Assembly: GCF_016432865.1 (NCBI RefSeq)
Contig: NC_067400.1
Location: 65,596,001-65,660,000 of the forward strand
Source of the DNA: Antechinus flavipes
Taxonomy: Eukaryota
DNA length: 64,000 bases
Direction of reading: 5' to 3'
Shown here piece after piece: positions 4,250-53,955 of this stretch. Under the pieces are notes generated by a model, which saw nothing but the letters and a program-made list of their open reading frames with translations, was not told the DNA's origin and searched no databases. The translations under genes were made by a program, and so were the position numbers. How positions within the stretch are numbered: position 1 is the stretch's first letter; every line of letters begins with the position of its first letter.

Positions 4250-5095
4250 TGATACCCATCAGTTGGGGAATAGATAAATGAATTGTGGTCTGTGAATGGA
4301 TCATTACAATGCTATAAGAAATGGTGAATGTGAAGAATACAGACAGCCACGGAAAGATTTAGATGAACTGAAGTAGAACAAAGTAAGCAGAACCAAGAAA
4401 ACAATATACTCAATGATTGCACCAATGTAAATTAAGTAGAAAGAATAACCCTTAGAAAACAATCAAGGAGCAGCTAATTGATGTACTGGATAAAGAACCA
4501 GCCCTGAAGTCAGGAGGACCTGAGTTCGTAAATGGCCTCAGATACTTAATACTTCCTGGCTGTGTGACCCTGGGCAAGTCACTTAATTAACCTCAATTGC
4601 CTCAGCAAAAAAAAAAAAAAAAAAAAAATCAAAAGGAAATGTTGTGAAATCATAAAAAACAAAGAAGCTCTGAAGGATACATATAGGAAAATGTCTCCAC
4701 CCCATCATTTTGCAGAGGTTGAAGGTTTATGACTGTGGATTTCTTGGACTTTTTCAATATAGTAATCTGTTTTGCTATTATTTTCTTTTTTTCTATTTTT
4801 CTTTCTTTAAAAATATTATTTGTTATATAAAAGTAAAGAAATAAGTATTTGAAATACTTACTTTGTGACAGGTACTGTGCTATTTGACAGTTATTATCTC
4901 ATTTGGTCTTTACAAAAAATCTTGGGAGATGGGTACCATTATTATCCCTATGTTATAAATGGAAAAAAAACCCTGAAGCATATGCAGATTAAATAATTTG
5001 TGGTATGGGTATCTGGAAGGGGTAGGGGGAAGTAAGGGGAATTTTGGCAATGTAAAAATAAAAAAATAAAAAAACCTAAAATAAAAAGATCAATC
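4250..5095 (+). mobile_element. Decayed L1 3' fragment with nested SINEs
   Basis: ggggaatagataaatgaattgtgg...aagtaagcagaaccaagaaaacaatatac (L1 ORF2 end/3' UTR); A-rich end near 5055-5090. Confidence 0.7.
4467..4628 (+). mobile_element. WSINE1-type SINE with poly(A) tail
   Basis: ggagcagct...gccctgaagtcaggaggacctgagttc...aattgcctcagc followed by 22 A; candidate TSD aaaacaatcaa (4456-4466) / aaaaaaatcaa (4622-4632). Confidence 0.85.
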
Positions 5096-6062: not shown

Positions 6063-7218
6063 AACATCACTTAGGAGAGGGCAAGTATTAGTTTTCTAAG
6101 GTTGGGTTCATTCAACCCATTTTATTGTCTGACTTGTATATTTGGCATTTAGTATATTTCATCATGTTGGTTTGGTGATTTTCCTACTGGGCAGGGACTA
6201 TATTATGCAGCTTTGTATCCTTCACACTGGTCTAGCACCTAATAAATGTTCGTTGAATTGAATTCCTTCTGGGCTGCCAGAATTCTTTTGTTTGACTGAC
6301 CTAAGTCTCTGGTTTGTAAGTCCAAAGTGAGTCATACATAGGTTGGTAAGTGAGTCAGGCTCCCAGTAGAATGTAAAGTTCCTTTATAGCAAGGATATGT
6401 TTTTCATCTTTGTTTTTGAGGCTCAATAGAGGACCTTGAGCCTACCAGGCATTCATACTGGCTTATTATTTTGAATAAAATCATACTGCATTATTTAAGG
6501 CCAATTGGGCAGGTGGCTGCTTTGAATTAAGTTTAAAAGAAAGTTCTTAATGGTATCACATCCTGAAGTAGGGATGTCATCCTGCCAAGACATCAGACGT
6601 TTAGAGTCTGGTGTAATCTTAGAGGCTGTATAATCTTTTGGCAGGTGAGGGAAATAAAGCCTAGAGAAGTCAAGAATTTTATCTAAAGTCACACCACTTG
6701 TAAGTAACAAGAATAAGATTTTAACCTAGGTCTTCCTGATCCAAAATTCACATCACTTTCCACTATACCATGCTTCTTCTTACATTCAATACATTTTCAT
6801 AATTGATTAACAGCAGAGTAAAGTAAAATTGAGCAGCTCATGCCAGCCTAAAGCCAGGTTGGTCATCAAGCCACTTATAGTGGATGTTAATGAACTATCT
6901 GTTCAGTCACTCCAGGCTACTCTCTGGCCGTCTTTATGCCAGGTGGCCTGAGAACTACACAACTTCTTCTTCCTCAACTTCTCCATTCCTTCTTCCCATT
7001 TCTGCCTTTAGCCCTGAGAAGAGTAATCGAATCACTACTCCCTTTCCTGGAAAGGATATGCCAATAGGTTATTGCTCTGGTGGTTTTATCATATCTGTGA
7101 TTTCCTACTTTAAATCATCTCATCTTGTCCACCAATGTACTATAAGAATTGTCTTCTCATTTATTTTCTTTTTTTCTTTTTGGATTTTTATTCCTAGTAC
7201 AGAGTAAGTAGCTACTTA

Positions 7219-7335: not shown

Positions 7336-9559
7336 CCTGTTTCCCTGGACATAATGGGATTGACGTAAATTCCTGCTTTCCTCTTTATACTTCTCTTGCT
7401 CTGTGGCAAGTGAATAGCCCAGGAAGCCTTTCATGATGATCTCACCTCTCCACATGCAAGGCAGGATGGTTCCTGCAGGGACATAGATCAGGGCTGATGA
7501 GTAGTCATCACTTATGCCCCACAGACATGACCTCATTCATCCTCACTACAGCCTAAAGAGAGAGAAGGAGGAATGGGGATGATTCTATCTAACATCCAAA
7601 GGGGACACTGAGGCACAGTGCTTGGGTTCTGTCTATAACATTTTATCTCTTGTGCTGAGGGCTATAGCCTAATTCCATTTATAATGGCCAAGATTGAGAG
7701 ATGGTATATTCTCCTGCTGGGACAGGCAGAAAGGGTTAGGCAGCTGACAGATGGGAGGACCTAAAGTCTTTATATTTGCTAATCAGGGAGGGAGAGATAA
7801 ATGCAATGCAGGTGGTCAGTTAAGCATAGAGAGGTAACTCAGAATCATCATCTTCACTTCCAGGTCTGTGGCTTTGTCCAGGCTGACACATGATTGCCAG
7901 TTCTTCCCCCAATTGGATAGACTATGGGTGGCCAGAAAAAGTTCGGTGAACACTTTGCTCAGTAACTGCAGCCCAGCCCAGCTATGATTCCAATTAGCCA
8001 CAGTGTTGCATGTCTTCAGTAGCTTTGCTAAAGCCCTTGGTCAGTCACAGAAATGAACTGAGGTTCATTGCAGGGTGGCAGAGGAAAGAACAGTGGCTCT
8101 GAAATCAAAGTCCCTGTATTCAAATGCTACCTCTGCCTATGTAACTTTAGGTAAATCATTTACAACCCTAGACTTCAAATTATTTGTAAAATGAGGAGGT
8201 TGGAGGACATGAATTCTGAGGTCTCAACTTCCAGCTCTAGAACTGATTTCTCAACTTCCCTTCTACCAAAATATTCTAAACTGTGGATGTGGCCACATGA
8301 TAGAAACCTGCCTCCTTCTCAGAATGATTTGCCACTTGAACGACCCAAGATTATCTTTGCAGTTAACTATAAAACTTTTCCATTCCAAAAAGAAAGTTTA
8401 TTGCTTTTCNNNNNNNNNNNNNNNNNNNNNNNNNNNNNNNNNNNNNNNNNNNNNNNNNNNNNNNNNNNNNNNNNNNNNNNNNNNNNNNNNNNNNNNNNNN
8501 NNNNNNNNNNNNNNNNNNNNNNNNNNNNNNNNNNNNNNNNNNNNNNNNNNNNNNNNNNNNNNNNNNNNNNNNNNNNNNNNNNNNNNNNNNNNNNNNNNNN
8601 NNNNNNNNNNNNNNNNNNNNNNNNNNNNNNNNNNNNNNNNNNNNNNNNNNNNNNNNNNNNNNNNNNNNNNNNNNNNNNNNNNNNNNNNNNNNNNNNNNNN
8701 NNNNNNNNNNNNNNNNNNNNNNNNNNNNNNNNNNNNNNNNNNNNNNNNNNNNNNNNNNNNNNNNNNNNNNNNNNNNNNNNNNNNNNNNNNNNNNNNNNNN
8801 NNNNNNNNNNGCCGTATGGGTTGCCTATTGAGAAGCGCACACTAGATCTCCAACCTCTAGTTTATCTGTGACTCCCTTTTTCTGGGAAGAGAGTGGTTGC
8901 CCTTTGATTAGGTAGCCTGACTGTGTCCCTGTAATTAAAGCCTCAGCTAGACCCTATCTCATGTCTGAGTCACACACAGAAGAGGGTGCAGTTAACAGGC
9001 CCTGGGAAAAATAATCCTTTCTCCCCACCCTTTGGGAGTGTGAGAGTCTTTATGGTTGTGTCTACCCAGGCAAAGTCAGAGAGAGAATTGAAATTTATCT
9101 GATAATTCAGGACTGGGAAAGGGGAAAGGAATCAATTTCACTGAAAATGTACAAAGTGATGGTCATAGCCTGAATAACTTCAATAGGATTATCGATTTAA
9201 TTTGATTCAATTCAGTAAGCATCGATTAAATGTTTACCCTTTGCAGGAACTTGGTTAAGCACTGGGGGACTGTGAAGCAAAAAAAACAAAAAAATCCCTG
9301 CACTCAAGTATTTATATTCTGATGGTTTAGAACCGAAAGAACTCTTGCTTCAATGTCATCTAATTCCACACCTTTATTTAACAGAAGAAGGACCTGGTAC
9401 TCCTGGAGATGAAACTACTGACTAAAGGTCACACAGATACTTAAATGACAAAGCCCAGGTCTGAATTCAAGACTGCTTCCACATTACTTCTCCAAGGAGT
9501 CCGGTTACTCCCCTAAATTCTCTGGATGTGTGGGTGCAACCTATGTGAATTATCATGAT

Positions 9560-9735
9560 TTCACAGAGAGAGAAAAACAGAAAAAGATACAAGAGACACA
9601 GAGAGCCAGAGAGACACAAAGAGATAAAGAAACAGAGACCGAGGTGCGCACGCGCACACACACACACAGAAACATAGAGAGAGACAGAAAAATAGGGACA
9701 CAGAGACAGAGAGACAGAGGCAGAGAAAGAGAGAG
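9560..9735. repeat. GA-rich (AGAGAC-like) low-complexity repeat with a short CA/CG run
   Basis: Seen directly. Confidence 0.85.
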
Positions 9736-10269
9736 CTCTTAATTCGATCACTTCTTCAAGATGAAATGATTGAAAATCTTTCTTATTCTCCAGGATTCTT
9801 CCTGCTCTGCCAACCTGACCCTCCCCATATCTCCATGTTCTATTATTCCAGCAGTGTTGTGAAGCTCATCTTTTTCTTAGAAAGCTCCCTGGTTTTCCAG
9901 AAAAGAAGCTTTTCCTTCCTCAATCACATCCTTTCCCACATGAAACTCCTATGTATTCTTTCTTTCCTACTCAATAACTCCATAATGCCTTTAGCTTTCC
10001 TTTTTTTCTCCAATATTGATTTGTGATTTCATCAGTTTTAAGGGTCCTAGGTGAGCTGATTAGTCACCAATTGTTCACTGATGTCTCACTGTTGTTAACT
10101 GGCTTTTGTGCTGAAACTTTCAGCCTTGGAGCATTGCCTAGAGAATTGAGAGTTAAACGATTTGCCCAGGACCATGCAGCCAGTATGTGTCAAAGGTGCA
10201 CCTTCACTTCTATGCACTGTAGCTTCCATGACTAGTAGTTTATTTGGCCAAGAGATGTCACTCATGCCC

Positions 10270-17240: not shown

Positions 17241-17733
17241 AAATCATGGTAACAAGCTGAATTGGGTATAGATTGGACAAGGAAGACAGAATAAGAAAGA
17301 TGCTCTTGGCTTCTTACTTCTGGTGATATATAAATCATTGATCAGTGTACCAATAGTTGAACAGTATTAGAGTCCAAGTTGTTGACTTCTAGTTCTCCTT
17401 CTGGTATTAGTATAGGATACCCTACAACACTGTCTGAGAAAACCCTAAAAGGATTGCCCAACCCCTTTTTTTGTCCCCAGAGAGACCTATACTTTTGTCA
17501 TTCTGTGGAATTGAGATTCTTTCCTGTCTGCTATTTCAGTAATAACTCTTATTATTATCTCACTTCTAGTCAAATCAAAAGTTTCTCTCCTATAGTCCCA
17601 CATTTCTCCTTGGAAAAAGAGAGGAGCAAAGCTTGGAAACCTGGGCTCTGGCTCTATCTTCTGTGCAAATGTTCCCATCTCTCTCTAGGATAAACATCCC
17701 CATTTCCTCAAATTAGCCTCATAGATGGATCAC

Positions 17734-18010
17734 TGTTATGGGAGCAACCTGCTAGTGGCTAGGGATCTAATTCTGACCAGCAGAATAGATCCCTTCATGT
17801 GAGAGGATGATAATGATATAAGGACACTAAAAGACAGTTGCATTCTCTGACCACTCTCCTCTTCCCTCCAATTTATTTCATTCTCAAGCCATAAGCAACA
17901 TTTGCATCAATAAAGGCTGATTTGCAATTCCTTCAAAAGTGTTATGATTCACAGCTGTGGGGGCTTCTGGAGAACCAACTTCCCTTCACACTTAGGTGTG
18001 ATCCTCAACA
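17734..18010 (-). repeat. 3' LTR of the mini-ERV
   Basis: The minus strand reads TGTTGAGGA...CCCATAACA; AATAAA at 17877-17872; octamer ATGCAAAT at 17907-17900. Confidence 0.92.
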
Positions 18011-18030
18011 ATTCCCCATTTTTTGTTTTA
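18011..18030 (-). promoter_or_regulatory. Polypurine tract
   Basis: Minus strand TAAAACAAAAAATGGGGAAT lies immediately before the 3' LTR; A-run plus G-run as in betaretroviral PPTs. Confidence 0.85.
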
Positions 18031-18452
18031 TGGGAACACAATTATTTTTCCCCCAACAGCATAGTCCACTATTGTGAAGTGGCTGTTATCTAGTCCATAT
18101 GCTGAGGAATGCAAACAATATTATCAAAGTCTTTTCTGTCCTATTCCTCTGGATGATTGCAGGGTGAGAGTGAGATGCTATAGCAGGTGTCCAATCTTGT
18201 GAGATGTCATGGAGGCAAACTTTCTGGCAAATGGAGAAATAGGATTGTAGTCAAAATAGGCATTTTTCATTAGTTCCTCATCAGTCTCCTGGCTTAGCCC
18301 TTTGATATATTAGCCCATTTTAATTCCCTGACTAAAAAAAGTCTTACTGGGTCTCTTCTCCCTTTCCTTCCCTGTGGGTTTCCAAGGGAACTCTCCTGGG
18401 AGGATCCTATTCATGACCAGCTCTTGAGCACCGATGCTTCTTTGTTTCTAGT

Positions 18453-18470
18453 ATCCCTGTTCGGGCGCCA
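18453..18470 (-). promoter_or_regulatory. Primer-binding site for tRNA-Lys3 (UUU)
   Basis: Minus strand TGGCGCCCGAACAGGGAT versus canonical TGGCGCCCGAACAGGGAC (17/18), 2 nt downstream of the LTR end. Confidence 0.95.
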
Positions 18471-18472
18471 TT

Positions 18473-18753
18473 TGTTATGGGCGCAACCTGCTAGTGGCTG
18501 CTGGGGATCTAATTCTTGACCAGCAGAATAGATCCCTTCATGTGAGAGGATGATAACAATTCAAGGAGACTGAGAGGCAGTTGCATTCTCTAACCTTTCT
18601 CCTCTTCCCTCTTCCTTCTGGTTTATTTCATTCCCTCATTCATTGCCTCAATAAAGGCTGATTTTCAAGTCCTTCAAGTATGTTATGATTCACAGCTGTG
18701 GAGGCTTTTGGAGAATTGACCTGCCCCTTCATACTTAGGCTTGGTCCTCAACA
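18473..18753 (-). repeat. 5' LTR of the mini-ERV
   Basis: The minus strand reads TGTTGAGGA...CCCATAACA, followed by AA and the PBS; AATAAA at 18627-18622. Confidence 0.92.
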
Positions 18754-19199
18754 GATCACTTGATGGTTGTCTCTAAGCACTATCCACTTTATAGTATTCA
18801 GAACCATACACAGTACTTTAGATGAGGACTGATAAGGGGGTGGGGGAAATGCAATAAAACCAACACTCCAATTCCTATAATCTATGTCAGTCCTTGACAC
18901 ATAGTAGTTTACAAATGCTTGCCCTTCCCCATCCCTCTCAATTTCCTGACTTCCCCCATTTCATCTGCTCCCTCCTCTTTCCGAGCTACAAATGTCCTTC
19001 CTTTTGATTCTGATTTCCAGCAACATGGCTGAACAAGAGTCTCTCAGAAACTTCCTCTGCCTGTTTTCCTATCCCAATGCAGATTATCCAAGGCTCTTCA
19101 ATTCTGAGCAGTGGCCAATAAGAAACAGACTTCTAGCTTTTCATTTTGTATGGAACAATGTGAATCACATAAGATAAGAAGGCACGAATGTCTGAGATA

Positions 19200-19790: not shown

Positions 19791-21757
19791 ATTCTGTCCT
19801 CATGAAATTCATTGTATAGTATTGCATAGCCAATGGATGAGTTACTCCTCCTCCAACCGGACATGATATTATAGATTCCAAGTCAATCTTCCATTAGACT
19901 AGTAAAAAATGTTACCCTTCAGAGCTGGCTTCTTTCTCTAGCTCTGACTGCTGCCACTGTTGGCAGACTCTCTCATGGATTCAAGGTGCTAGACCTCAGG
20001 TGGATCTTTAGAATTTTTGAACCTCACAAAGTTGTAGCCTGGTGCATCTGTCTCTGATATTCATTCCCCTAAGATCATGAAAGTAATAACGGAATAGTGG
20101 TATTATGTATCCATGGCCACATGGAAAGGAGCTGTCCTATCATGTGGTTCATAGCATTTATTCCTCATCAGAACCAGCCAGGGAGAGAGAATTCTTCCAT
20201 TGCCTTGAGCCTTTTGTACATTCGCCCAGTGTACCCAGTGCGGGCCCATCAGTCAGTTAAAAAAGGGTTTTCTTTGACAATAGGAAATAGTTAATATATT
20301 CTCCCAAGTGCTGAAATAGGGAAAGGGCATCTTCCATCAAGTCACTTAGAAATGAGTTCCCTGTGGGTTTATACCAGGAAGAGCATATTGTGCTTGCTCT
20401 AAGAAAAGGGACCTCATTGATTAGTGTCTTCCTTCCTCCCTTTATGTAAAGTTTATTTATATAAACATGAGTGTAGTAGTACATATGTAAATTAATAAGT
20501 AAACAAATGTATATTGAGAGTATGTGCTCAAAAGTTTTTACTAATGGGGTGTGTGCTCACAAAAGTTCCAACACATGAAGACCCCTGTACTCCATGATCT
20601 CTAAGGTAGCTTCCTGAATTAGTATTAGGTGGTTCTAAATGTATAAGGTGTTAAGCCATCTACGTCTTTCCTACTTTGAAAAACTCTTTCCCTGAACTGT
20701 CTTTCCTTAGCCTTGTCACATCAGAACAAGGAGAAAAGAGAAGGCTCATAATACCAACCCTTACTGATCTTTTCCCTAGGATTCTGTGCTGGTGAGATAA
20801 TGTCTGTGGAGGGCATTCTGGGGAGAAATACAAGGGGTACTGTTGTTGTCCCTGGGCTTCCTGAGCAGGCCAGGTAACAGGCTCTTTCATCTTAATGGGC
20901 AGCTGATGCTACTTATTCCTTTCTTTCTCCCAGAGTTAAAGATTTTCTTTAAAGAAATAATTAGCAGGTACTTTTAAACCTCCCCAGTGACTCATTCTTC
21001 TTTGAAATGCTAACTTGGGGTTGTCTCCTTCAGAGAATAAAATATAATGACAATAGCAATTTATTTCATAGTCAGAGCCTGGCCAATTAGCACCTACCCT
21101 TATACCCAGAAAGTAAAAGGCATTGGCTAGGAGGGCAGAAAGGGATTAACTACATGATATGGATCAAGTTTCTCAGCTTCTCTGGGACTCAGTTTCCCCC
21201 TTTGTAAAATGAGAAACTTAGACTAGGATTATGAGATTTCAGATTTTGAGGTGGAAGGAATTTGGCAATCATTTAATCCAGTGATTTCCAAAGGGGTAAT
21301 GTGTACTACAATGTGTGTGTGTATAATTACATAAAAAAAACATCTATTTTTGAGGTATTTTAGCTAAAAAAAAAACCCAAGGATCATTGATATTAATAAC
21401 TAGATTGACATTGGAGCCCTCATTCAAATAATTTATCAGACTCTCATGTGTTAAGTAAGTCTTTGACCACCTCTTGAAGTATATAATACATTATAATTAC
21501 TAGATAATTCAAAATAGTATTGAGAACATTGAGAAGTTTAGCAGGTTTGGCTTATAAAGTAGGAGACATTTTGCTTTTCTAGTGAGCCAAGGTAAGAGTT
21601 GGGATCACTTCCCTAATCTTGGTTACTTTCTCCAACATATATCAGGGCAGTTTCTTGGGGCTTTTCCTGAAAAGTCAGTGCTGACCAAGCACCCAGAAAC
21701 TCTTAATCTCTCAAAATCACAAGATTGCCTCTGAGACAGGTAATATCCATCTCAAGA

Positions 21758-21885
21758 TCACTAGCCCTAAAGTCAGGAGGACCTGAATTCAAATGAGATC
21801 TCAGACACTTAGCACTTCCTAGCTGTGAGATCCTGGGCAAATCACTTAACCCCAGTTGCCTAAGCAAAAAAAAAAAAAAAAAAAA
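21758..21885 (+). mobile_element. 5'-truncated WSINE1-type SINE with poly(A)
   Basis: gccctaaagtcaggaggacctgaattcaaat...ttaaccccagttgcctaagc followed by about 20 A. Confidence 0.85.
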
Positions 21886-22059
21886 GGGAAAAAAGATCAC
21901 TTCTCTGTCACCTATGTCCTGGAAAGAAACACAGAGTAGAAGAGAAACTAAAGTTTTGAGATCCAATCTCAGGCTTATCTAAGCCAACACACATGCTATA
22001 GCTTTTTAGCTATAATTATCATACTCCTGGGTAGAGAGTGGCCCTTTCCTGGAGTTACT

Positions 22060-24911: not shown

Positions 24912-25967
24912 ATATATGTGATTGCTAAAGATTGAACAAGAACAAGTAGCCTTTTGCTTTGACTCACGCAGATGGTTGATCAAAATAATAACTTGTTATT
25001 TTTTAAGCCAGCTTCTCTGCTTTGATTAAAGACATTAGTGTTCATGTGGAAATGATATTAAGATTGATTGTTGATAAACCATTTTGTATTTCATTGCAGA
25101 TATCTAGGTTTTGTTTACACTTTCCAGTATTAACATTACCAAGCAAGGGGCTTAAACCTAAAAGATGATTACCTTTCCTAATACAAATATAAAAAGGCTC
25201 CACTCACATTTACTAAGCTTTTGCTTCTGTAACAATCTCAATTATTCTGAAAAATAGCCTGCTTTTGGAACATTTATGGTTTGGCTTTAGAAAGAAATAG
25301 AAAGTTTGAATTGTCTTATTTGCTGGGAGAGGAAGATAGAGGGAAGAAACCTTTTCTCTTTTAGTTCCTCGTAGCTCTCAAATAGCATGATTCTATAATT
25401 CAGAAAGACTTTCCAAAGAATCTTACATTTTAAGATCTCTTTTGACAAGAAGGGATTAGGCAGAGAAAGGGATTTATTAGGCATAGGAATGTTCCCATCT
25501 AGAAACAGTGGAAGGAAATAATTAACACTTACAACCTCTTTTCCATTATTTTTGTGAGACTTTGCTTTCAAATCCCTTCTAAGCATTAGCACAGGGTTTT
25601 GGAAAAAGCTCTGGACTTGGTGCTTGGAGAACCTGGAGAACCTCTCTTTCTGGATCTGTTCATTGAATTGTAAAGTGAGAAGGCTGGATAGTAATCAATG
25701 GTTTTCATCTCTTTGTTTGTTTGTTTCTTTTTCATTATTCTCTCTCTTTCTTTCTTTCCTTCCCCAGAATAATGCAATATACTATGTATAGTATTCTGCA
25801 ATTATTTGTTACTTGAGACACATTTCAATAATTTTTAGCCCCAACACTTTGGATCATGATCTCTAACCACAAGAAATAAGAGAACTACTAAATGGGAATC
25901 ACTGGAATAGGTGCTATCTGATCTTCCCTTAGACCTAAAATTATATCATTAGTTAGGTCTTTAAATG

Positions 25968-26215
25968 GGGCAAGTAAATGTCACAATGAAAAGAGTGCCA
26001 GCCCTGGAGTCAAGAGGACCTGAATTCAAATCTGGTCTCAGACACTTACTAATGTGTGACTCTGGGCAAGCCACTTAACCCTATTCACTTCACTTTTTTC
26101 ATCTGTCAAATGTGCTAGAGAAGAAAATGGCAAAATACCCTTGTATCTTTGCTAAGAAAATCCCAAATGACATCACAAATGAGTTGGACATGACTGAAAC
26201 AATTGAACAACAAAA
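25968..26215 (+). mobile_element. Mar1-type CORE-SINE, full length
   Basis: tRNA-like head, core, and RTE-derived tail ending gactgaaacaattgaacaacaa. Confidence 0.9.
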
Positions 26216-26384: not shown

Positions 26385-27669
26385 TTGCTGTTGTTGATCA
26401 ATTGTTTTCCTTAGTTATATCTAAGTCTTTGTGTCCCATTTAGGGTTTTCTTGGCAGAAATATTGGAGTGGCTTATCATTTCCTTCTCCAGCTCATTTTA
26501 TAGAAGAAGAAATTGAGGCAAGAAGAGTTAAGTAATTTGCCCAGGTTCATACAGTTAGTAAGTATCTGTGGCCAGATTTTAACTCAGGAAAATGAGATCC
26601 TGATTCTCGGCCTATCTACTATTACTACTACTACAACTACAACAACAACAACAACAACTACTACTACTACTACTTCTACTACTACTGCTACTACTACTAC
26701 TTCTACTACTGCTACTACTTCTACTACTATTACTACTACTTCTACTGTTATTACTACTACTACTACTTCTACTACTACTGCTACTACTACTACTTCTACT
26801 ACTGCTACTACTTCTTCTACTACTATTATTACTACTTCTACTGCCATTACTACTACTACTACTTCTACTACTACTACTGTCACCACTACTACTACCTCTA
26901 CTACTACTACTACCTCTACTATTACTACTGCTACTACTACTACTACTTCTTCTTCTTCTTCTACTACTACTACTACTGCTGCTATTNNNNNNNNNNNNNN
27001 NNNNNNNNNNNNNNNNNNNNNNNNNNNNNNNNNNNNNNNNNNNNNNNNNNNNNNNNNNNNNNNNNNNNNNNNNNNNNNNNNNNNNNNNNNNNNNNNNNNN
27101 NNNNNNNNNNNNNNNNNNNNNNNNNNNNNNNNNNNNNNNNNNNNNNNNNNNNNNNNNNNNNNNNNNNNNNNNNNNNNNNNNNNNNNNNNNNNNNNNNNNN
27201 NNNNNNNNNNNNNNNNNNNNNNNNNNNNNNNNNNNNNNNNNNNNNNNNNNNNNNNNNNNNNNNNNNNNNNNNNNNNTGCTACTACTACTTCTTCTTCTTC
27301 TTCTTCTACTACTATCACCACCACTACTACCTCTANNNNNNNNNNNNNNNNNNNNNNNNNNNNNNNNNNNNNNNNNNNNNNNNNNNNNNNNNNNNNNNNN
27401 NNNNNNNNNNNNNNNNNNNNNNNNNNNNNNNNNNNNNNNNNNNNNNNNNNNNNNNNNNNNNNNNNNNNNNNNNNNNNNNCTACTACTACNNNNNNNNNNN
27501 NNNNNNNNNNNNNNNNNNNNNNNNNNNNNNNNNNNNNNNNNNNNNNNNNNNNNNNNNNNNNNNNNNNNNNNNNNNNNNNNNNNNNNNNNNNNNNNNNNNN
27601 NNNNNNNNNNNNNNNNNNNNNNNNNNNNNNNNNNNNNNNNNNNNNNNNNNNTACTATTACTACTATTAC

Positions 27670-27700
<31 letters not shown>

Positions 27701-27735
27701 TATACATTTTATCTACTGTGCCACCTAGATGCTCC
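26385..27735 (-). mobile_element. Mar1-type SINE split by an (ACT)n array
   Basis: Body at 26385-26620; the head end (atctactgtgccacctagatgct) resumes at 27710-27735. Confidence 0.8.
26621..27699. repeat. Imperfect (ACT)n trinucleotide array containing three N gaps
   Basis: Seen directly; variants ACA, TCT, GCT, ATT and ACC. Confidence 0.95.
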
Positions 27736-27754
27736 CTTCTGCCTTGTTTAGGTT

Positions 27755-28090
27755 GTACATGTGTGTGTATGTGTGTGTACACATATGCATATACATATGC
27801 ATTTGAAGTATACATACAAATATACCTAAGCAATTATGCATACCCTATATTTTCATATAGACTTATGTGTATATATAAATATATATGTTTATGTATATAG
27901 TGTGTCAGTGTGTATGCATTTATATTACCTAATAGATAGATATAGATGCCTAAGTATAGGCATCTAAACCCATGTACACAATATATACTTACAACTTATA
28001 GACATATACACTATGCATATATAATATATTGTATATATTATGCATATATGTAATCTATATAAGTGTATATATAATGTATGTGCACATCAT
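27755..28090. repeat. Degenerate (TA)/(CA)/(TG) purine-pyrimidine low-complexity tract
   Basis: Seen directly. Confidence 0.8.
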
Positions 28091-29679: not shown

Positions 29680-29810
29680 TATTTTTGGTGAGGCAATCAG
29701 GGTTCAGGGTCACACAATTAGTAAATGTCAAATGTCTGAGGTCAAATTTGAACTCAAATCCTCCCAATTCCAGGACTGGTGCCCTATCCACTGCAGCACC
29801 TACCTGTCCC
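29680..29810 (-). mobile_element. CORE-SINE (WSINE1/SINE1-like)
   Basis: tttttggtgaggcaatcaggg...tttgaactcaaatcctccc...ccctatccactgcagcacctacctgtccc. Confidence 0.8.
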
Positions 29811-30614: not shown

Positions 30615-31045
30615 TTTTTAAGCCCTTAGTATGTATCAAACTGAGAGCTGTCAAAAATCTTAGCTTAAAAAGACCAAGGTCTTCCAATGCATCCAGGGAC
30701 ATCTCCAGCTGTCCTGATCTATATCTGGCCCTGGACCCAGATGACTTTGGAGGGGAAAGTGAGGTAGTTGACCTTGCACAGCCCTCCTTCACTTAAATCC
30801 AACTCATGTGCATGTTATGGTATCACCTCCCTGATGTCATGGTACTCTTTAAGAACTAAGAACAGGGGCAGCTAGTTGGTGCAGTGGATAGAACCCCAGC
30901 CCTCAAGTCAGGAGGACCTGAGTTCAAATCTGGTTTCAGACCCTTAACACTTCCTTAGCTGTGTGACCCTGGGCAAATCATTTAACCCCAATTGCCTAAA
31001 CAGCACCCCCCCCAAAAAGATCTAAGGACAAACAACAATAACAAT
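30615..31045 (+). mobile_element. RTE-related marsupial SINE (MdoRep1/RTESINE-like) with nested WSINE1
   Basis: cttcacttaaatccaactcatgtgcatg...atcacctccctgatgtcatgg; ends in an RTE-type aaggacaaacaacaataacaa tail. Family name from recall. Confidence 0.7.
30865..31016 (+). mobile_element. Full-length WSINE1-type SINE
   Basis: ggggcagctagttggtgcagtggatag...ttaaccccaattgcct; TSD aagaactaagaaca (30851-30864) / aagatctaaggaca (31017-31030), 12/14 identical. Confidence 0.9.
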
Positions 31046-42450: not shown

Positions 42451-42589
42451 GGGGCAGCTAGGTTGTCCAGTGGATAGAGCACCAACCCTGAAGTTAGGAG
42501 GACCTGAGTTCAAATCTGATCTCAGATACTTAACATTTCCTAGCTGTGTGACTCTGGGGGAGTCACTTAACCCCAATTGCCTCAGCAAA
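42451..42589 (+). mobile_element. WSINE1-type SINE lacking its tail
   Basis: ggggcagctagg...cctgaagttaggaggacctgagttcaaat...ccccaattgcctcagcaaa. Confidence 0.9.
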
Positions 42590-42789: not shown

Positions 42790-43300
42790 TATGCAGCAGT
42801 CCAGTGGACTATATATTCTCTGCAGTAGTTTGAATGCTTAGCAGTTTAGTTCAATAAAGGACTTCAGGATCTGGTATTTTATCTTGCCAGGTGATCTTCA
42901 GGATCTTCCTAAGACAATTCAAGTGGAAGTGATTCAGTTTCCTGGCATAGTGCAAGTATACCAAACTGGTTTCACAGGGACACAACAATGAGGTCAGCAC
43001 AACGGCTCTGTAGACCTTCAGTGTGGTAGTCAATCTAATACCTCTCCTCTCCCACACTTTGCTCCCACATTTGCTTGGCAATGTGTGTGCCAACTCCATT
43101 ATCAATTGGACATCCCTGGAAAGTATACTGCCAAGGTAAGTAAATTTATTCACAGTATTCAAAGTTTCTCCATTTGCCGTAACTGGTGGTTCTACATACG
43201 GATGATTTGGGATTGGCTGATGTTTTCTTGGTGCTAATTGTAAGACTAAAATTAGCACAAGCAGCAGAGAATTGATCCATACTTTGCTGCATCTCAGCTT
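42790..43300 (-). mobile_element. RTE-clade (RTE-BovB-like) LINE, decayed ORF2 C-terminal fragment
   Basis: ORF 42851-43327 contains VNKFTYLGSILS, KVWERRGIRLTTTLKVYRAVVLTSLL and LNHFHLNCLRKILKITWQDKIPD, hallmark RTE RT C-terminal motifs; frameshifted at its N-terminal end. Confidence 0.9.
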
Positions 43301-43339
43301 TGAATCACACACCAACACTCCCTCCACTTTATATTAACA

Positions 43340-53836: not shown

Positions 53837-53955
53837 GGGCAACTAGATGATGCAGTGACTATAGCACAGGTCCTGGAGTCAGGAGGATCTGAATTCAAAT
53901 CCAGCTTCAGATAATTGATACTATGTGACTTCGGACAAGTCACTTATTCCAGGTA
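53837..53955 (+). mobile_element. CORE-SINE 5' part
   Basis: gggcaactagatgatgcagtg...cctggagtcaggaggatctgaattcaaatccagc. Confidence 0.8.

Follow-up and report, generated by a model that had tools for sequence, protein, structure and literature searches.

Is a retroelement of 1,020 bp that retains little besides two long terminal repeats (LTRs) the remnant of an ordinary provirus that lost its genes, or was it multiplied at this size by the machinery of another element? This question is raised by a 64,000-nucleotide stretch of the Antechinus flavipes genome (the window; all coordinates given below are positions in it), whose minus strand carries such an element, here called the mini element, with two LTRs ending in TG..CA, a primer binding site (PBS), a polypurine tract (PPT) and flanking target site duplications (TSDs). 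It is almost certainly a member of an amplified non-autonomous LTR family. Parts of this family are found time and again fused, in most cases at the PBS, with an abundant gag-pro-pol element that lacks env and possesses an unrelated LTR, and which we refer to as the helper.

The original prediction had inferred a possible mini-LTR family and proposed to search with the internal segment for copies of about 1 kb bearing different TSDs. The searched assembly comprises 3.19 Gb; only the best 40 candidates were scored per sequence search, and candidate totals are first-look counts, not copy numbers. The 462-bp internal segment returned 1,046 candidates, and 40 of 40 scored ones matched it at 77–86% identity (excluding the query itself); the mini LTR returned 3,712. 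An exact LTR-PBS pattern, too strict given the age of the family, yielded four matches only, and no further mini copy was found elsewhere in the 64-kb window. Among loci L001 to L220 (L001 to L240 are the labels of the loci in this analysis) we distinguished 35 LTR-internal-LTR copies whose 5′ start could be read, besides 37 solo-like LTRs. The left flank is different in each of the 35 two-LTR copies, 20 of which are bracketed by a 6-bp TSD that is either perfect (13) or has a single mismatch (seven); two have no readable end and two (L008, L098) are units of tandem arrays. TSDs of this quality also bracket 24 of the 37 solo-like LTRs. In 4,830 control pairings of unrelated left and right flanks, 0.12% agreed without mismatch and about 1% with at most one. 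Copy length is 971–1,174 bp in 31 of the 33 measured two-LTR copies, and the 462-bp internal sequence is colinear across dozens of copies with different TSDs. The family thus exists as inferred: its unit of multiplication was LTR-internal-LTR, with TSDs of 6 bp, and many solo LTRs were left behind. In the six interrupted internals that we inspected, the inserts match repeats elsewhere or resemble L1, short interspersed nuclear element (SINE) or other LTR pieces, and neither these nor two mini copies with a replaced 5′ part revealed a longer shared native core.

Several variants were observed within the family. A tandem duplication of about 33 bp at the U5 end of the 5′, the 3′ or both LTRs is found in L002, L004, L005, L007, L014, L019, L022 and others and is absent from the window copy. 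A second subfamily (L180, L186, L193, L205, L207, L224–L239) is marked by a somewhat extended LTR end, by a spacer that reads TA and by a gap within the internal at approximately positions 295–366; most helper-LTR hybrids from one junction search belong to it, the query itself being of that type. Tandem arrays of the form internal-LTR-internal-LTR occur at L008, L098, L029, L202 and L228 and are reminiscent of multi-LTR Cassandra elements. Two near-identical locus pairs, L013/L017 (7.3 kb apart) and L048/L058 (2.1 kb apart), are probably local duplications that occurred after insertion.

One of the copies inspected, L120, pointed to the helper. In L120, mini sequence is joined to a gag with a Gag_p10 match; this gag family gave 1,285 first-look candidates, and mini pieces adjoin three of 23 other loci of the family. 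A broken helper copy, L183, encodes the domains Gag_p24, protease, reverse transcriptase (RT), RNase H and integrase; at E ≤ 0.01, no env family was detected in it. By eye, its Pol is nearly the same as the published MEBrv3 Pol, and the Gag of the helper family is homologous to the published MEBrv3 Gag (PMC11334065). That MEBrv3-type elements are so abundant would fit a marsupial of the dasyurid type. The profile of MEBrv3 (~7.3 kb, gag-pro-pol, env lost) is found in L183 and not in the mini element. The helper LTR of about 570 bp is unrelated to the mini LTR, as their alignment score of 30 stays below the shuffle maximum of 34, and blastn detected no DNA-level match between the mini internal and the helper gag; we hence rejected the mini element as a member or deletion derivative of MEBrv3. 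The one helper LTR pair compared has a Kimura two-parameter (K2P) distance of 0.164, the same age class as the mini family.

As a separate observation, the U5 of the helper terminates in a tandem series of one to three units, each of which combines a PBS-like 18-mer with about 20 bp that have CA at their end; the units mix Lys3-like and Lys1,2-like types (L180, L181, L183, L221–L233). These units may be products of repeated plus-strand mis-transfer. L162 carries an antisense piece of a mini LTR. Loci L126–L154 comprise groups of class II endogenous retrovirus (ERV) copies with 95–100% identity and long open frames, indicative of recent activity of other ERV families. Young class II ERVs were rejected as helper, since the best 30 of 150 scored IN_DBD_C integrase loci share no sequence with the mini element within 1.5 kb.

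How regularly the mini and helper elements are joined was assessed from their junctions. Queries with the mini internal or PBS only recovered 67 distinct loci, in four of which helper sequence is joined, and junction searches recovered further hybrids. In the full set L001–L240, which is enriched for hybrids by these junction searches, the sequence 5′ of the mini internal could be assigned in 91 cases to a mini LTR (69), a helper LTR (16) or neither (6). Read from the other side, there are 61 distinct mini LTRs with a PBS behind them; they continue into the mini internal in 55 cases, into helper sequence in four and into other sequence in two, one of which resembles the helper leader by eye; an unknown long internal region followed in none of the 61. 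Most hybrids have the form helper LTR-mini internal-mini LTR; L183 is of the form mini LTR-helper internal-helper LTR, and L217, L186 and L179 are composites with three LTRs. L179 additionally contains a 375-bp stretch that is 100% identical at 6829–7203 and 9527–9901, either a recent duplication or an assembly artefact.

The outer ends of these hybrids are informative. Among 12 readable hybrids with unlike outer LTRs, eight possess a 6-bp TSD whose two copies agree either at 6/6 positions (L183, L093, L231, L232) or at 5/6 (L224, L227, L229, L234), for which P is about 2 × 10−10 at a chance of 2.9% each; L217 has an exact 5-bp TSD. The rate of 8/12 is similar to that of ordinary copies (20/35). 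Left out of the 12 were hybrids with a lost or eroded outer end (L186, L155, L179, L185, L189, L223, L226, L233), L230 (5′ end not found), L208 (not resolved), and L087 and L207, whose two outer ends carry LTRs of one type (TSD 4/6 and 5/6). Of 40 candidates scored, only L093 itself shows its junction, and the joints fall at different PBS-like units. Many hybrids thus lie within one TSD, which shows that each of these was integrated as a single unit.

A tRNA-Lys PBS in combination with a 6-bp TSD is associated with class II ERVs (betaretrovirus-like, ERV2), and both signals are present in the mini family. The original prediction of a tRNA-Lys3 PBS applies to the window copy but not to the family as a whole: typed against reference motifs, 15 of 34 copies are Lys3-like and 19 Lys1,2-like. 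A tree of 31 internal sequences is star-like (median tip 0.11, two of 28 inner branches well supported), and the PBS types are scattered on it with 12 changes, 455 of 500 shuffles being as low. The mini family exists with either tRNA-Lys primer site. As the PBS is re-copied from the primer tRNA during retroviral reverse transcription, the mixed types fit the use of either tRNA-Lys.

Taken together, we consider it likely that the mini family is a class II-like, non-autonomous family sized like the terminal-repeat retrotransposons in miniature known as TRIMs, that it was co-packaged by a MEBrv3-type element, and that the chimeras arose by intermolecular plus-strand transfer. Mini RNA would be transcribed from its own LTR and packaged in intracellular particles of the MEBrv3-type element, where tRNA-Lys would prime it and the helper RT and integrase would copy and insert it. 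When mini and helper RNAs are packaged together, plus-strand strong-stop DNA of one could jump to the minus strand of the other via the common Lys PBS; one such transfer would give a provirus with unlike LTRs, and a reciprocal transfer a composite with three LTRs. A single integrase would accept both LTR ends, only the helper encoding one. The same products would result if two cDNAs recombined at the PBS before integration, a route that would likewise imply shared machinery. Because normal reverse transcription copies one LTR to both ends, a provirus with two complete unrelated LTRs could not descend from a hybrid master copy, and each such hybrid would represent an independent event. The Lys PBS is the only homology between the mini and helper RNAs and guides plus-strand transfer, which makes co-packaging followed by transfer the simplest route.

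Judged from these sequences, mobilization of the mini family in trans by an autonomous element is strongly indicated. What the original prediction had said of a helper-mobilized parasite stands as to amplification, lack of autonomy and class II-like signals, but the helper that it expected to share the mini LTR was not found among the best 40 candidates scored per search; what is indicated instead is an element whose LTR is unrelated. It is nonetheless conceivable, although in our judgement unlikely, that the mini element was mobilized mainly by an autonomous parent of its own with the same LTR, now rare or decayed, and that the MEBrv3-type hybrids reflect incidental cross-packaging or cDNA recombination at the PBS. 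The mini LTR must come from some lineage other than that of the helper, the internal contains a weak gag-like remnant that cannot be aligned to the helper gag at the DNA level, and each search scored only its top 40 candidates. Against such a parent, only mini internal, helper and the two other sequences followed the 61 mini LTR-PBS junctions; queries taken from the middle and from the 3′ part of the internal gave mini copies or hybrids only, and the 30 best integrase loci are free of mini sequence within 1.5 kb.

There is little chance that the hybrids were put together only in the integrated state, whether through nested insertion combined with a deletion or through ectopic recombination across the 18-bp PBS, in which case the family would be non-autonomous and the hybrids would carry no information on a helper. 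Old ERV loci do gather secondary insertions, as illustrated by L162, and joints inside gag or lost ends are seen in L155, L179, L180, L185 and L208. Yet after nested insertion one would expect two mini LTRs together with an internal TSD, recombination between loci would produce unmatched flanks in place of the one TSD present in eight of the 12 hybrids, and L229 was inserted in another element whose sequence resumes across the site. That the window copy is a single ordinary provirus stripped of its genes by post-insertion deletion, the alternative that the original prediction had left standing, is suggested by its short size and nothing more and has practically no chance of being correct, as the 40 of 40 scored internal matches and the 35 distinct copies, colinear in their 462-bp internal and with different TSDs, refute it.

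Several points weigh against the co-packaging and plus-strand transfer that we favour. A clean TSD is absent in three of the 12 readable hybrids (L222, L225, L180), and hybrid ends were read by eye and after the fact. The joints of L155/L120, L180 and L208 lie inside gag and not at the PBS, and need an additional deletion or template switch. The two well-supported inner branches of the internal tree force only two PBS changes, the age of the helper derives from one LTR pair only, and the comparison that links the mini open reading frame (ORF) remnant to the helper Gag, described below, is partly circular. The second retroviral strand transfer is cited as intramolecular in the accessible text of PMC5086612; aberrant plus-strand transfers are documented in HIV-1, as excerpted from PMC12657518. 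Co-packaging in MEBrv3-type particles is itself something that we infer from the sequences, and an autonomous parent carrying the mini LTR may exist, rare and decayed, beyond the best 40 candidates scored per search.

The anatomy of the window copy is summarized in Table 1. On the minus strand, each feature of the predicted LTR-AA-PBS-PPT-LTR layout was recovered in place, as was the perfect 6-bp TSD GATCAC on both sides. The LTR pair was also recovered as direct repeats with a spacing of about 740 bp; since, in addition, perfect TSD matches are rare in the control flank pairings, a chance origin of this anatomy is excluded. The interval from PBS to PPT measures 423 bp. The PBS is tRNA-Lys3-like, one of its 18 bases deviating from the Lys3 motif. 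The leader RNA of this decayed copy showed no unusual folding stability, 33 of 100 shuffled sequences being equally stable. The window copy is an ordinary, dead and, in our reading, fixed member of its family.

Table 1. Features of the mini element in the window and of its flanking duplications.
Feature	Position	Strand	Remarks
TSD, 5′-LTR side	18754–18759	.	6 bp, GATCAC
5′ LTR	18473–18753	-	281 bp, TG..CA; AATAAA at LTR position 127
AA spacer, LTR end to PBS	18471–18472	-	sequence
PBS, tRNA-Lys3-like	18453–18470	-	18 nt; 17/18 versus Lys3 motif
Leader, presumed packaging signal (inferred)	18319–18452	-	folding z −0.49
ORF remnant, broken	18124–18318	-	~62 codons, Met-Gly start; weak likeness to helper Gag capsid N-terminal helix
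PPT, abuts 3′ LTR	18011–18029	-	sequence
3′ LTR	17734–18010	-	277 bp, TG..CA; K2P 0.150 versus 5′ LTR
TSD, 3′-LTR side	17728–17733	.	6 bp, GATCAC

The near-total loss of coding capacity that had been claimed is substantiated by the longest stop-free stretch of 73 codons in the six frames of the window copy and by the lack of database matches: no Pfam family was detected in 12 frames of four mini copies, the ORF remnant had no match in the PDB, and a protein-database search with it gave one candidate and no match, which is weak evidence. The remnant is intact in one of 31 copies. Across these copies its frame contains 1.4 stops, compared with 3.4–3.5 in the other two frames; a codon-position bias is absent (0.160/0.164/0.164), a result that is uninformative given the star-like tree. 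A coding function of the remnant was rejected, Pfam, PDB and protein-database matches being absent. On the N-terminal helix of the helper Gag capsid, 68 of 378 best pairwise matches were obtained, compared with 1–6 of 378 in three shuffles, for segments that were picked by motif, which renders the comparison partly circular; the motif is present in 14 of 20 gag loci. A betaretroviral gag ancestry of the remnant is therewith suggestive only.

The window copy is old, as 36 of 268 aligned sites, in addition to indels, are different between its LTRs (p 0.134, K2P 0.150), a divergence that the original prediction does not mention; the K2P distances within LTR pairs of the family have a median of 0.159 (range 0.106–0.261). 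At a substitution rate of 5.95 × 10−9 per generation and two-year generations, as given in the accessible text of PMC11128018, this would correspond to insertion roughly 25 Myr ago for the window copy and 27 Myr for the family, uncorrected for CpG sites; slower long-term rates would make the family older. The insertion is common to four other organism labels, as contigs bridge the junction of 5′ LTR and flank in four of four sequencing runs, reaching 43–52 letters into the LTR and differing from the window by 4/588 to 36/599 letters. On the 3′ LTR side, three runs extend 23–27 letters into the LTR, under the 31-letter threshold. No empty-site joint was present among the 15 joints listed, a further 339 lying outside these. 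There was no RNA run among the sequencing runs listed with the insertion, which says nothing about expression. A young or polymorphic insertion is thus ruled out by LTR divergence and sharing, and the insertion polymorphism that the original prediction had considered is not expected for an ancient family whose insertion is common across species.

Elsewhere in the window, a 160-codon open frame at 42851–43333 (minus strand) resembles the C-terminal part of an RTE-type long interspersed nuclear element ORF, and a long trinucleotide repeat tract of the TAC/TAT type, partly N, occupies 26500–27900. Copies of a short SINE-like repeat are found at 1404–1534, 4487–4625, 21755–21889, 25967–26085, 29706–29810, 30865–30993, 42451–42589 and 53837–53901, and the same repeat is inserted in mini copy L078.

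For a non-autonomous LTR element, the helper is usually guessed from an LTR that both have in common, whereas here the LTRs are unrelated and hybrids with one TSD tie the pair together. In other genomes, such hybrids may offer a way of assigning helpers from sequence alone to orphan mini-elements. Between PBS and PPT, about 420 bp were enough for spread to high copy number, and plus-strand transfer between different RNAs can, as these loci suggest, be common in intracellular particles. A bolder version, which we put forward tentatively and with slightly more doubt than belief, is that an undescribed mammalian TRIM hijacked the env-less MEBrv3 'superspreader' of dasyurid-type marsupials, and that about one in 20 internal-bearing loci is the fossil of a two-RNA particle. 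If this version is true, intermolecular plus-strand transfer between LTR elements of unrelated kind, via a common tRNA-Lys PBS, has left a large natural record in the genome, which includes switching between two Lys primers and names the helper without an experiment.

Among known systems, the mouse elements ETn and VL30 are about 5 kb long, and the pairing of VL30 with murine leukaemia virus (MLV) is closer to a case of unrelated LTRs. ETn derives from MusD, whereas the mini and helper LTRs are unrelated. According to the accessible text of PMC6466679, ETn (helper MusD), IAP 1-delta-1, VL30 (helper MLV) and the 5-kb non-coding ERV-beta4 elements are mobilized in trans, and the helpers of ETn and IAP are env-less class II elements that retrotranspose inside the cell. 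The mini element appears to work alike, but is much smaller and ancient rather than active. The helper resembles MEBrv3 in being a very abundant env-less gag-pro-pol element with Gag and Pol, by eye, as published, whereas its older LTR is by eye unlike the 469-bp LTR of the published MEBrv3 representative (PMC11334065, accessible part). That part of the report, which treats gene-containing ERVs, does not describe the mini family. MEGrv 3 was rejected as LTR source since its published 5′ LTR, equal in length at 281 nt by coincidence, is by eye unlike the mini LTR.

Short ORF-less LTR elements are known from other mammals, namely short non-coding ERV1 LTR clusters in alpaca (PMC8605555) and ERV1 solo LTRs of 589–711 nt with 4-nt TSDs in the devil (PMC4408412); these are class I, and the parts of the two reports at hand identify no helper. 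A description of the mini family was not found among the literature titles and abstracts searched, a coverage that leaves out most subscription papers. Repbase contains devil ERV2 entries (PMC13641905, as excerpted), and a library name for the mini LTR could well exist already, even if we lean slightly towards the opposite.

The closest architectural counterpart is the TRIM, defined in the accessible text of PMC4558846 as a non-autonomous element of less than 4 kb, typically 0.5–1 kb, in which only LTRs, PBS and PPT are kept. TRIMs are known there from plants, the harvester ant and taeniid cestodes, ta-TRIM being called the second animal TRIM family in 2015, and multi-LTR composites are reported for the Cassandra TRIM in pear (PMC4079214, as excerpted). 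The mini element shares with TRIMs its size, the TG..CA LTRs, PBS, PPT and TSD, the absence of gag and pol coding sequence and amplification as a unit. It differs from the known TRIMs in residing in a mammal, in its tRNA-Lys PBS and 6-bp TSD, and in having its helper indicated by natural hybrids, and would thereby bring the TRIM architecture into the context of mammalian class II ERVs.
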